From Thermodesulfobacteriota bacterium (lineage in GTDB: Bacteria > Desulfobacterota > Desulfobulbia > Desulfobulbales > Desulfurivibrionaceae), in assembly GCA_040757055.1 (NCBI GenBank), contig JBFLXY010000011.1:19099-83098 (forward strand): a DNA stretch of 64,000 nt, given 5' to 3'. The notes under the pieces were generated by a model. That model was not told the DNA's origin, did not search any database, and saw only the letters and a program-made list of their open reading frames with translations. Both the position numbers and the translations under genes were made by a program. Below are positions 53-4,017 of the stretch, piece by piece; the first letter of the stretch is position 1, and each line of letters begins with the position of its first letter.

Positions 53-94
53 GAAAAAACCGGGACACTTCCCGAAAAAACCGGGACACTTCCC
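53..94. repeat. Perfect 21-bp tandem duplication (gaaaaaaccgggacacttccc x2) directly upstream of the ATG of the left-edge gene
   Basis: Units at 53-73 and 74-94 are identical base for base. Confidence 0.95.
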
Positions 95-197
95 AATTAA
101 AAGCTCGGCTCTCGAAAACCAAGCACCAGAATCGATTGCTCACCCAGCAGGGTTCCAGGTTGCCAATTCACTCCTAGTCCTAAATCGAATTCAGTGA

Positions 198-1040
198 TCA
201 TGGCAACTCCTTGTTTTTCGGCATTTCAGTCAATTCAGCCGCCCTGGAATAAGGAATAATCGCTCCAGTATTGCACTGCAGCCAAATCGGCTCGCGGTGC
301 GAGGCGTCATAAATCTGCTTGTTGCTGGGAAAGGTCCCGGCCACAGCGGCAACGATTGCGGCCTCATCCGGAGTGAGGGGCGGGACGCTGGATACATCGG
401 CCTTGAAAATCTCGTCCACCAAATCACGGTAATTATTGAGCTGCGGCCCCATGGGCAGGGCGGCATATGAGGCTCCGGTAATACTGTGGCCGAGGTCGCG
501 GAAAGCAACCATGTCGGCGTACCAGAGATACTTCGCCGCATAGAGCATGCGGTCATCCTTCTTTAGTAGCGGCCGTTGCAGTATCTCGCTGAAAGCGTCG
601 AGGACAAGACGAATTCGAGGAATGGAAAATTCACGGTTACCGGTGTGCTCGTTGCACGCATGATCCAGCAGAAACGTCCGCAACAGGGTATCCATGGACT
701 TGCTTTGAATAACCCCCGATTCCCAGCGCTTGATACTGGCTATTCCAACATCCAGGGCCTCGGCCAGGGCCTGTTGCGAGAGGCCCTTACCCTGGCGCAG
801 ACCACGTATTTCTTCGCTTCCGAGCAAACCGACAGCCTGCCGGTAAGAATCGGCAAGCCTCTCCTGCATTTCCGCTGCTTCTTCAATGTCGGCAAGTTCC
901 AAGCCGCATGCCGCACATAGCTGCAATCTGGCGGTATAGGTGACATCAACCCCTTTAAGCTCGGCCCGCTTTTCAATCTCTATCATCCTTAGCTGCCCCT
1001 GGCAGTTCGGACACGTTTTGTTTTTCATTTGCTTATCCAT
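198..1040 (-). CDS. Hybrid antitoxin: MqsA-type zinc ribbon plus XRE helix-turn-helix, fused to a C-terminal Panacea (DUF4065/SocA-like) domain
   Basis: The N-terminus has CPNC...CAAC, followed by an HTH segment (GLSQQALAEALDVGIASIKRWESG) laid out like E. coli MqsA. The C-terminal half has KYLWYADMVAFRDLGHSITGASYAALPMGPQ, typical of DUF4065. The ATG lies 3 nt after the upstream gene's stop. Confidence 0.75.
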   Translation of the reverse strand: MDKQMKNKTCPNCQGQLRMIEIEKRAELKGVDVTYTARLQLCAACGLELADIEEAAEMQERLADSYRQAVGLLGSEEIRGLRQGKGLSQQALAEALDVGIASIKRWESGVIQSKSMDTLLRTFLLDHACNEHTGNREFSIPRIRLVLDAFSEILQRPLLKKDDRMLYAAKYLWYADMVAFRDLGHSITGASYAALPMGPQLNNYRDLVDEIFKADVSSVPPLTPDEAAIVAAVAGTFPSNKQIYDASHREPIWLQCNTGAIIPYSRAAELTEMPKNKELP

Positions 1041-1043
1041 AAT

Positions 1044-1415
1044 CTATTCCTCCGCCACTACTCTGGTGCAGATGTGAAGCGATACCAGATACAACGTCCC
1101 TTGCTGAAGAGAGAACTTGTAATACACACGACATTCAAACCTTTCGCACGTAACCGAGAAGGCAAATAAATCGTGATTGAGAATCAGCTTTTCGTAAGAT
1201 TTTTCGGGAGGTCGGTGTCCGGCATAATGTTCCGGCCCGGTGCTGTTCAACAGGTCCAGCAATACCAACTGCAACTCATGCCGGATCGAGTAGCCGAGAG
1301 ACATGGCGTCGGCCACGATAACTGCCGGCTCAACGAGCATGATCTTATTCTCATGCACGGCCTCCAAAGCAGCTTGAAGCTTACCGTTTAGTTCCTTATA
1401 GGAGGGTCTTGCCAA
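1044..1415 (-). CDS. MqsR-like toxin candidate (about 123 aa)
   Basis: The gene order is toxin first, as in mqsRA. The C-terminus RVYYKFSLQQGTLYLVSLH parallels MqsR's VYLKITV...LIVSFKE. The mid region SLGYSIRHELQLVLLDLLNSTGPEHY parallels MqsR's LGLDFDGMCNVIIGLSESDFY. The track start (TTG at 1451) sits inside the promoter -10 region. I prefer TTG at 1415, which is preceded by GGAGAG. Confidence 0.55.
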   Translation of the reverse strand: MARPSYKELNGKLQAALEAVHENKIMLVEPAVIVADAMSLGYSIRHELQLVLLDLLNSTGPEHYAGHRPPEKSYEKLILNHDLFAFSVTCERFECRVYYKFSLQQGTLYLVSLHICTRVVAEE

Positions 1416-1454
1416 GAATTCTCTCCAACCGAAACAGGCCAGCCTCGGCAATTC

Positions 1455-1483
1455 ATTATGGTATCAATTGATACCAGAGTCAA
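1455..1483 (-). promoter_or_regulatory. Sigma70-type promoter of the toxin-antitoxin operon: TTGACT, 17-nt spacer, CATAAT
   Basis: The minus strand reads TTGACT ctggtatcaattgatac CATAAT. The -35 is at 1483-1478 and the -10 at 1460-1455. Confidence 0.55.
1459..1476. promoter_or_regulatory. Perfect 18-bp palindrome (tggtatcaattgatacca) filling the promoter spacer; likely operator for the HTH antitoxin
   Basis: The sequence is exactly self-complementary and lies between the -35 and -10 elements. Confidence 0.5.
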
Positions 1484-1683
1484 GATTTAAAACCTGAGGA
1501 GGATTCCGGGGACATAATACTCATTTCCCGTCAACCGCTGTTTTCCCCATCCGCCCCAGGAATTGAGCACCCTATCCCCAGGGACAGGATACATAATTCC
1601 CGCCAGCCGGGAAAACATGAAATTTCAAAGCTTCGTTTCCGCAGAAAGTCCAGGCACGGCGAAACGTGGATAACGGGCCAGAA

Positions 1684-1785
1684 CTATTTTCCCACCCCGC
1701 AGATAGATGCGGGGGAATGGTACCGCTCCTCCGGCAGGTCGTCGTAGGTGGGGTCAACCTTGGTGGTGAGGATCGCCTTGGTCAT
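1684..1785 (-). pseudogene. Truncated 5' fragment paralogous to the left-edge gene (MTKAILTTKVDPTYDDLPEERYH, then an out-of-family tail and a stop)
   Basis: It shares 46/49 nt with 4-52. A stop follows after 33 codons. A 1-nt frame shift after YH would read FPRIYLR, which resembles the family continuation as I remember it. Confidence 0.5.
1737..1785. repeat. Right copy of the 49-bp direct repeat
   Basis: See 4-52. Confidence 0.9.
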
Positions 1786-2558: not shown

Positions 2559-3238
2559 AGCCGACGTTCTCCGGCCGCCAGGTCGTCCAGGGCGTCGCGG
2601 TCGAGGAGGGTGATGCGGGAGCCGTCCACGGCGATCCAGCCCTGTTTCGCCAGTTTGGTGAGCATCCGCGACAGGGTCTCGGGGATGGTGCCGAGCAGGC
2701 TGGCGAGCTGGCTCTTGCTCACCGGCAGGGCCACGGTGTCGGCGTCGCCCTGCTGCTCGCTCAGGAAGAGGAGATGGGCGGCGAGACGGCCCGGCACCTC
2801 CTTGAGGGAAAGGTCCTCGATGAGGTGGGCGAAGCGCTTGAGGCGCATGGAGAGCGCGGCCATCATGTTCATGGCCAGATCGGGGCTGCTCCGGAGCAGT
2901 TCGATGAAGGCCCGGCGGGGAAAGAAGAAGACCCGGCTCTCCTCCAGGGCCAGGGCATGGGCCGGGTAGGAGGAGCTGGTGAAGACCGCGGCCTCGGCAA
3001 AGGGTTCGCCCGGCCCGAAGAGGTGGAGGATCTGCTCCTTGCCGTCCATGGAGAGCTTGTAGATCTTGACGAGCCCGCTGCCCACCACGTAGAAGCCGGC
3101 GCCGGGGTCGCCCTCGGCAAAGATCGGCTGCCCCTTGCGGAAGGTCTGGCTGGTGGCGATCATGGCCAGTTCGTCGTACTGGGCCGGGGTGAGGCCGCTG
3201 AAAAGGGGGACGGTGGCGAGGAATCCGGTGATCTCCAT
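2555..3238 (-). CDS. Crp/Fnr-family transcriptional regulator
   Basis: It has a cyclic-nucleotide-binding fold (FRKGQPIFAEGDPGAGFYVVGSGLVKIYK) and a C-terminal HTH (SKSQLASLLGTIPETLSRMLTKL). The start was trimmed to MEITGF. Confidence 0.85.
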   Translation of the reverse strand: MEITGFLATVPLFSGLTPAQYDELAMIATSQTFRKGQPIFAEGDPGAGFYVVGSGLVKIYKLSMDGKEQILHLFGPGEPFAEAAVFTSSSYPAHALALEESRVFFFPRRAFIELLRSSPDLAMNMMAALSMRLKRFAHLIEDLSLKEVPGRLAAHLLFLSEQQGDADTVALPVSKSQLASLLGTIPETLSRMLTKLAKQGWIAVDGSRITLLDRDALDDLAAGERRL

Positions 3239-3240
3239 AG

Positions 3241-4017
3241 TCAATCCGTTGAGGGCAGGGCGCCGGCGGCCAGGGCGTAGTTGTCGAGAAGAGCGGCCGC
3301 CACCCGCAGGGGGCGGTGCGCATTGTGGCATATTTCCCCGGCCGAGAAAAGGAAAAGATGGCCCGCGCCCGCCGGTTGGGCCTCGATGAGTACGATGTCC
3401 CGGAAGCCGGGCAGCGGCGGGAGGGGCACCATCTTGCGGATGGCCTCCTTGGCGGCCCACAGCAGGGTGAGCCGCACCGTTTCCGGATGATGGCCGGCGG
3501 CCGCGGCCAGAATCGCTTCTTCGCCCGGCAGGGCGAAGCGTTGTTTCACTCGCCCCACCGTTGGGCCGACCGCCTGGAGGTCGATGCCGCAAGGCTGGAA
3601 GCAGGCCATCGCCGCGGCGCACCCGGCGCTGTGGGAAAGGGAGAGGTGTACCGGCCGGGGAAGGCCGGGCAGTTCGAGCCGGGGTTTTCCGGCCCCGTCG
3701 GCGCCAATGGTGAGGGCCGAGGGGGGCGGCACGGAGCCGAAAGTGGCGAGCAGCTCGCAAACCGCGGCCTTGGCGGCGAGGCGGCCGCCCAGCCATTCCT
3801 GGCGGCGTTTGGGGTACTGGAAGGCATGGTAGCGGGCCTCTTCCCCGGCGCTGAGCAGGGCGGCCAGCTGCGCCGGCCCCAGCGGGGCGGCCAGCGGGCT
3901 CAGGTCGAGGAGGACCATGGGCAGGGGGCCGTCCAGCCCCAGCGCCTCGGCCCAGGGGACAGATGGCGGGGAAAAGGAGGGAATGGCCAGGGGATAGCCG
4001 TCAGGGAGAGGGGTCAT
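3241..4017 (-). CDS. 4'-phosphopantetheinyl transferase (Sfp/EntD type)
   Basis: Contains GKPRL...SLSHSAG...WAAKEAIRK motifs. Confidence 0.8.
   Translation of the reverse strand: MTPLPDGYPLAIPSFSPPSVPWAEALGLDGPLPMVLLDLSPLAAPLGPAQLAALLSAGEEARYHAFQYPKRRQEWLGGRLAAKAAVCELLATFGSVPPPSALTIGADGAGKPRLELPGLPRPVHLSLSHSAGCAAAMACFQPCGIDLQAVGPTVGRVKQRFALPGEEAILAAAAGHHPETVRLTLLWAAKEAIRKMVPLPPLPGFRDIVLIEAQPAGAGHLFLFSAGEICHNAHRPLRVAAALLDNYALAAGALPSTD

Follow-up and report, generated by a model that had tools for sequence, protein, structure and literature searches.

Two adjacent genes at the beginning of a 64,000-nucleotide stretch from a Thermodesulfobacteriota bacterium (contig JBFLXY010000011.1, positions 19,099 to 83,098, hereafter called the window) raise the question of how a toxin is controlled by an antitoxin that carries two potential neutralisation modules. 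Both genes were on the minus strand of the window, the toxin first, and the antitoxin combined a zinc ribbon (ZnR) and helix-turn-helix (HTH) of the MqsA type with a C-terminal Panacea domain. An earlier note, made from the sequence alone, had called the toxin MqsR-like, but did not decide which module handles it or whether a second, unlinked toxin is also controlled. The present analysis indicates, with a probability of roughly 0.7 and largely by analogy with characterised systems, that the locus is a type II toxin-antitoxin (TA) cassette of the MqsR:PanA kind, in which the zinc domain would neutralise the toxin, the HTH would repress the operon via GTATCAATTGATAC and the Panacea domain would have an accessory role. 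Computed here were the identities of the domains, the relationships of the folds, the extent to which the operator is conserved, the occurrence of Panacea-less partners and the mobility of the cassette.

The toxin TAG stop and the antitoxin ATG were separated by a gap of 3 nt (ATT). The longest open reading frame (ORF) that could be read for the toxin encoded 135 residues from a TTG at 1451, a codon that would not lie downstream of the predicted transcription start. The N-termini of the toxin homologues (36 of the 36 aligned) had the form M/L/V-x-R-P-S, with the start one codon before R-P-S, and matched a second TTG at 1415. Because the homologues align there, the toxin start was assigned to the TTG at 1415, which gives a protein of 123 residues. 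The toxin-first order, the 3-nt spacing and the sizes of the two proteins (123 and 280 residues) given in the earlier note were borne out by this ORF and start-site analysis.

The predicted fold of the toxin pointed to MqsR. The AlphaFold2 model had a pLDDT (predicted local distance difference test) of 75.6, and its best PDB matches, found with Foldseek, were the E. coli MqsR chains 3hi2_B and 3hi2_D (probability 1.00, E 1.7e-3, target template modelling (TM) score 0.68), while the next matches, RelE, YafQ, HigB2 and ParE, had TM scores below 0.5. When 114 members of the toxin family were scanned singly, 18 gave weak, sub-threshold matches to PF15723 (MqsR_toxin), the best with an E value of 0.0042, and no other family recurred in more than two of the 114. 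Comparison of these 114 members with 41 canonical MqsR sequences in hhalign gave a probability of 72.8% and an E value of 3.2e-5, with 91 collinear columns. The alignment paired MqsR residues Y81, K83, S94 and K96 with Y98, K100, S112 and H114 of the toxin, each of which was at least 90% conserved across the 114 diverse members. A histidine instead of K96 at this C-terminal position is common in other RNases of the RelE superfamily. The toxicity residues of E. coli MqsR are K56, Q68, Y81 and K96 (PMC2791442). Searches by sequence were less informative, since the toxin had no match in PADLOC or the PHROGs and no sequence match in the PDB, and nothing meaningful was found when the toxin and profiles of 37 and 114 relatives were compared with the PDB sequences. 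An exhaustive profile search showed that the toxin family comprises 329 clusters at 50% identity, and the 39 close relatives of the toxin were all annotated 'hypothetical'; the family is sizeable, yet has no curated Pfam or NCBIfam model.

The N-terminal half of the antitoxin had been described as an MqsA-type zinc ribbon and HTH and the C-terminal half as Panacea (DUF4065), and both descriptions held. TIGR03830, the NCBIfam MqsA family (CxxCG_CxxCG_HTH), matched residues 10-126 with 89 bits (cut-off 61.8), HTH_3 matched residues 78-120 with 31.9 bits (cut-off 23), and PF13274 (Pfam SocA_Panacea) matched residues 170-253 with 33.7 bits (cut-off 25.7), covering profile positions 3-112 of 113. 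The peptide quoted in support of the Panacea domain, KYLWYADMVAFRDLGHSITGASYAALPMGPQ, comprised residues 170-200. The Pfam model MqsA_antitoxin (PF15731) scored 27.9 bits, slightly below its cut-off of 30. The AlphaFold2 model of the antitoxin, built with 60 homologues in the alignment, had a mean pLDDT of 87.6 and consisted of three separately folded modules, two long β-strands followed by a helix (residues ~8-70) as in MqsA-N, a five-helix HTH (75-124) and a compact α/β module (140-270); the Panacea part was modelled with a pLDDT of 85-97. The top PDB fold match was full-length E. coli MqsA (3gn5, probability 1.00, 21% identity), and no solved Panacea structure was among the PDB fold matches of the model.

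The zinc ligands of E. coli MqsA, Cys3, Cys6, Cys37 and Cys40 (PMC2791442), have the counterparts C10, C13, C42 and C45 in the antitoxin. Across the 60 homologues C10, C42 and C45 were invariant, while the C13 column was glycine in 28, which read CPxGHG rather than CPxC, and this suggests that the zinc site of the CPxGHG subgroup is Cys-His-Cys-Cys. The HTH was strongly conserved in the homologues, including an IASIKRWE motif. The databases contained more than 870 full-length homologues, many of them named 'type II TA system antitoxin MqsA family protein', and almost every one of the 120 antitoxin homologues among the matches listed carried a precomputed PF13274 annotation. When both proteins were scanned, PADLOC gave only weak HTH matches, and the PHROGs gave only regulator-type matches for the antitoxin. 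The ratio of nonsynonymous to synonymous substitution (dN/dS), where dS was unsaturated, was about 0.2-0.3 for the zinc ribbon, 0.06-0.16 for the HTH and 0.06-0.18 for Panacea, values that are qualitative only, as synonymous sites were saturated in most pairs.

The pairing of the two proteins was surveyed in 80 related genome loci that were obtained by a genome scan with toxin alignment A1; loci are cited here by number (L009 and so on). The toxin was directly upstream of the antitoxin in every informative locus, and the toxin family also adjoined the antitoxin in several metagenome loci. The zinc ribbon, HTH and Panacea were encoded in one ORF in about 63 of the 80. Four loci, from metagenome-assembled genomes (MAGs) of Verrucomicrobia and Chlamydiae, had HTH and Panacea with an N-terminus that the ZnR profile did not detect; the antitoxin was split by a frameshift in two loci, and seven loci ran off the contig. 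In four others an intact toxin was accompanied by an antitoxin without Panacea (at ~3000-4000 in each). The antitoxin consisted of ZnR-HTH only in L040, the complete genome of Desulfoluna limicola ASN36, and in L072; that of L085 had a CxxC...CxxC N-terminus visible by eye and undetected by the ZnR profile, and that of L030 had ZnR-HTH plus a second HTH. No Panacea remnant was found near these four loci by tblastn. Because intact toxins pair with Panacea-less antitoxins, ZnR-HTH is the constant partner of this toxin family and Panacea is dispensable for pairing.

Which module neutralises the toxin has been answered by experiment for a homologous system, the Bacillus fungorum MqsR(D2):PanA pair (WP_099686063.1 / WP_099686064.1) dissected by Ernits et al. 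(PNAS 2023), where the zinc-binding domain (ZBD) or ZBD-HTH is responsible (PMC10440598). The B. fungorum antitoxin is tabulated as 'Panacea; ZBD (MqsA); HTH' and has the order ZBD-HTH-Panacea. ZBD alone and ZBD-HTH neutralised the toxin, while Panacea alone and HTH-Panacea did not; Y97 of the toxin was essential, HTH-mediated dimerisation was predicted, and Panacea was hypothesised to be a sensor (PMC10440598). The two halves of E. coli MqsA have separate binding partners, the toxin for MqsA-N and DNA for MqsA-C (Brown 2009, PMC2791442). The window pair resembles that of B. fungorum in having an MqsR-type toxin and a ZBD-HTH-Panacea antitoxin, with a catalytic Tyr at position 97 there and Y98 here. 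It differs in the host phylum, Bacillota as opposed to Thermodesulfobacteriota-type MAGs, and in its toxin, which no MqsR hidden Markov model (HMM) matches; the B. fungorum toxin owes its MqsR annotation to a domain search.

Several observations weigh against the interpretation of the locus as an MqsR:PanA cassette, 1) the toxin had no Pfam or NCBIfam match at E ≤1, the MqsR HMM included, 2) the hhalign probability fell to about 1% when a single MqsR sequence was used, 72.8% being reached only with the MqsR family alignment, 3) MqsR K56 and Q68 were aligned with G66 and A85, which are not conserved, in a region near an insertion where the alignment is uncertain, 4) that toxin family carries an RPPxxSYE insertion of about 12 residues, one proline of which is invariant, 5) mirror-tree partial correlations with the toxin were 0.35 for the zinc ribbon, 0.27 for the HTH and 0.39 for Panacea, so that the zinc domain was not singled out, and 6) the B. 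fungorum antitoxin, likened to this one by its published description, has 349 residues (ZBD-HTH 1-174) as opposed to 280 here (ZnR-HTH ~1-130). Since the K56 and Q68 counterparts are missing and the RPPxxSYE insertion is present, the catalytic mechanism may differ from that of MqsR. The earlier note had proposed searches with MqsR, MqsA and DUF4065 models and had named failure of the toxin to score as MqsR-like as a refuting result. TIGR03830 and PF13274 passed, PF15731 was just under its threshold and the MqsR model gave nothing, and it is the predicted fold, the profile-profile comparison and the matches in 18 of 114 family members that sustain the MqsR-like assignment. On these three lines the toxin is judged to be MqsR-like, and by the curated criterion it lies outside PF15723.

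The missing HMM match and the missing K56 and Q68 counterparts would also be expected if the pair were no longer a working TA system, the toxin being a catalytically dead relative of MqsR and the 280-residue protein an autoregulated transcription factor. Decayed copies do occur, with the toxin deleted in L004 and L005 and the antitoxin frameshifted in L045 and L080. This explanation is nevertheless very unlikely. The toxin is under purifying selection (dN/dS 0.11-0.15 in unsaturated pairs), the four residues Y98, K100, S112 and H114 are conserved across the diverse members, the pairing holds in all informative loci, and the cassette in the window is itself intact and matches copies from other genomes at 97% identity. 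In L004 (2829-2974) and L005 (1009-1154) the toxin was cut down to residues 83-114, while promoter, operator and antitoxin were intact; an orphan antitoxin or another pairing was considered for these two loci and rejected in favour of a toxin-deletion derivative, that is, ordinary TA decay. The derivative adjoins a HigB/HigA-like pair and HEPN, GmrSD_N and methyltransferase genes, in what looks like a defence island.

The Panacea domain could itself neutralise the toxin, leaving ZnR-HTH as a transcriptional regulator only, as a standalone Panacea domain is a direct neutraliser in several PanAT pairs (PMC8832971; PMC10440598). It was the most conserved part of the antitoxin by dN/dS (~0.06-0.13) and of the three modules it followed toxin divergence most closely by partial correlation, although the value of 0.39 is not discriminating. 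The inability of B. fungorum Panacea alone and HTH-Panacea to neutralise (PMC10440598), the natural pairing of intact toxins with the Panacea-less antitoxins of L040, L072, L085 and L030, and the role of the zinc domain as the toxin binder of MqsRA (PMC2791442) make this distinctly improbable. A further proposal is that Panacea acts as a proteolytic adaptor by a type VI mechanism, the zinc domain merely tethering the toxin, since PF13274 is named after SocA, an antitoxin that promotes proteolysis (PMC8832971). The tested PanAT pairs formed stable complexes and neutralised without a need for ClpXP or Lon (PMC8832971), and the ZBD alone suffices in B. fungorum (PMC10440598), so that an adaptor role is highly improbable. 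Neutralisation by the zinc domain is the preferred reading.

The earlier note had also drawn attention to a palindrome upstream of the toxin, and this element is present, unique in the window and conserved. The palindrome GGTATCAATTGATACC filled the spacer between the -35 and -10 hexamers of a sigma-70-like promoter (TTGACT-17 nt-CATAAT, 10 of 12 consensus matches), which was the sole promoter-like site in positions 1-2000. The 14-nt core occurred in a single copy in the 64-kb window, with no further match at up to two mismatches and none in shuffled sequences. Among the 78 of the 80 loci that had enough upstream sequence for the count, 69 carried GTATCANNTGATAC within the 160 nt that precede the toxin, and there were no copies elsewhere in those loci (399 kb). 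The conservation spanned several phyla and held for toxins with as little as ~40% identity. There is thus strong comparative evidence that the palindrome is an autoregulatory operator. The palindrome was absent in L040, L072 and L085, where the antitoxin lacks Panacea and the HTH is divergent. The operator sequence was not found in the searchable literature. In a distant subgroup (e.g. L021-L070) only 1-4 nt separated the end of the operator from the inferred start of the toxin, as compared with ~40-60 nt in the subgroup of the window; the promoter and leader layout differs between the subgroups, to judge from these distances, and the distant one may be leaderless.

Taken together, the proposed mechanism is as follows, with toxicity, RNase activity, neutralisation by the zinc domain and DNA binding carried over from the homologous systems. 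One sigma-70-type promoter (1483-1455) would drive a bicistronic mRNA with the toxin first. The 123-residue toxin would be a divergent MqsR-like endoribonuclease of the RelE superfamily, with Tyr98 and His114 as the likely catalytic residues. The N-terminal four-cysteine zinc domain would bind and neutralise it, while the central XRE HTH would dimerise and repress the operon by binding GTATCAATTGATAC in the -35/-10 spacer. The Panacea domain at the C-terminus would have an accessory function rather than that of the neutraliser, and might be a sensor that sets the timing of toxin release. The features on which this proposal is based are listed in Table 1.

Table 1. Positions of the predicted features of the cassette and its surroundings (coordinates of the window)
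Feature	Position	Strand	Remarks
Mobile cassette (promoter, operator, toxin, antitoxin)	198..1494	minus	~1.3 kb
-35-like hexamer TTGACT	1478..1483	minus	consensus scan
Operator palindrome GGTATCAATTGATACC	1459-1476		core GTATCAATTGATAC at 1461-1474; perfect 16-nt palindrome; candidate operator
-10-like hexamer CATAAT	1455..1460	minus	39 nt upstream of toxin TTG 1415
Shine-Dalgarno-like GGAGAG	1421..1426	minus	5 nt ahead of toxin TTG (1415); read from sequence
Toxin gene	1044-1415	minus	123 residues, TTG start; predicted divergent MqsR-like RelE-superfamily member, putative endoribonuclease
Antitoxin gene	198-1040	minus	280 residues, ATG start
Zinc-binding domain, antitoxin residues 1-62	855..1040	minus	C10, C13, C42, C45; predicted toxin-neutralising module
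XRE-type HTH, antitoxin residues 63-130	651..854	minus	predicted dimerisation and operator-binding module
Panacea (DUF4065/SocA-like) domain, antitoxin residues 131-280	201..650	minus	accessory or sensor candidate
Terminator-like hairpin and T-run	103..124	minus	3' of antitoxin stop
Second terminator-like hairpin	60-75		inside 21-nt tandem repeat

The cassette shares several properties with E. coli MqsR/MqsA (b3022/b3021; 3hi2, 3gn5), namely the toxin-first order with a tiny intergenic gap, a four-cysteine zinc domain followed by an XRE-type HTH, and a RelE-like toxin fold in which the counterpart of Tyr81 is conserved. In contrast, E. coli MqsA has 131 residues and no Panacea domain, and shares 22% identity with the window antitoxin (BLASTP E 0.003). 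The window toxin is ~10-14% identical to E. coli MqsR, from which it differs by the RPPxxSYE insertion, by histidine in place of K96 and by the lack of conservation of K56 and Q68. The palindromes recognised by MqsA are of the ACCT-N-AGGT type, and the sequence of the window operator differs from these.

Related pairs have been described before. Makarova et al. (2009) reported a YgiU/MqsR subfamily 2 linked to HTH-GepA fusions, with multiple copies in Geobacter (PMC2701414). Kurata et al. (2022), who named Panacea, found that MqsR-like was the most frequent type of PanT that could be recognised (n=90) and that 343 PanAs had HTH N-termini; the MqsR of Herbaspirillum was toxic and was not rescued by its PanA (PMC8832971). 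As in both descriptions, the window toxin adjoins an antitoxin with HTH and GepA/DUF4065 domains, but these descriptions of HTH and GepA mention no zinc ribbon, which the window antitoxin has (PMC2701414, PMC8832971). The type VI TA system SocA/SocB of Caulobacter has the Panacea (PF13274) fold family in common with the window antitoxin, but there SocA serves as the proteolytic adaptor of a toxin that blocks replication, and the system has neither ZnR-HTH nor an RNase toxin (PMC8832971).

The cassette, from 1494 to 198, was 97.3% identical over 1297 nt to locus L009 (MAG contig JAZDIS010000464.1), and the window from 1494 to 156 was 95.6% identical over 1339 nt to the Logan contigs L089 and L090. 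The flanks of these three copies were unrelated. The GC content of the cassette was 52%, compared with 65% in the window and 68% next door. Judging from these alignments and from its composition, the cassette is mobile and was acquired recently and horizontally. It lies within a compositional island at 156-1800 with a GC content of ~46-58%, as against 65-75% from 1800 on, and is found downstream of an MntP gene. No further copy of the toxin family, of Panacea or of the operator was present in the 64-kb window, and on this ground the idea that the antitoxin also controls a second toxin was rejected. The toxin had no tblastn match in plasmids, a scan of viral contigs for MqsR relatives gave two loci only, and the full-length antitoxin matches in unannotated gut phage contigs were distant ones only (24-27%). 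A Y1_Tnp gene (IS200/REP-type tyrosine transposase) lay just 3' of the cassette in the unrelated contigs L001 (7317-8192) and L006 (4214-5149), the latter of which additionally had a phage-integrase fragment.

The cassette region is bracketed by a 54-nt direct repeat (93% identity) at 1-54 and 1734-1787, both copies of which code, on the minus strand, for the protein start MTKAILTTK(I/V)DPTYDD...; the copy at 1785 is a 33-residue remnant (1684-1785, minus strand), and the copy at 51 leaves the window. In L009 the antitoxin is followed by a gene for a 302-residue HNH_2 (PF13391) endonuclease (3094-4002), whose ATG overlaps the antitoxin stop (ATGA, 3094-3097), and the first 50-90 nt of this gene matched both window repeats at 85-88%. 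The direct repeat looks like a scar left by insertion or recombination where an HNH-endonuclease-type gene begins. A general three-gene TA-HNH system was rejected, as an HNH gene directly after the cassette was found only in L009 among the 80 loci. In the window the antitoxin stop is separated from the start of the downstream gene by a 147-nt spacer, absent in L009, which is filled by a perfect 21-nt tandem duplication, GAAAAAACCGGGACACTTCCC x2, at 53-94 and by two terminator-like hairpins.

It has been considered whether Panacea senses a trigger, such as a phage product or a stress signal, and then releases or activates the MqsR-like RNase bound to the zinc domain, which would make the cassette an abortive-infection-type defence module. 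We regard this as unlikely. In L009 the cassette is translationally coupled to the HNH endonuclease gene. If this proposal were true, the Panacea-less forms in L040, L072 and L085 would be constitutively 'blind'.

Both the ZBD-HTH-Panacea:MqsR design and the separate tasks of its domains were already published in 2023 (PMC10440598) and are not new. The cassette in the window belongs to a large clade of MqsR-like toxins, comprising the 329 clusters, that current annotation calls 'hypothetical'. Its unusually well-conserved 14-bp operator offers a ready-made test of DNA binding, and the occurrence of the same toxin family with and without Panacea provides a comparative handle on the role of Panacea in multidomain antitoxins.

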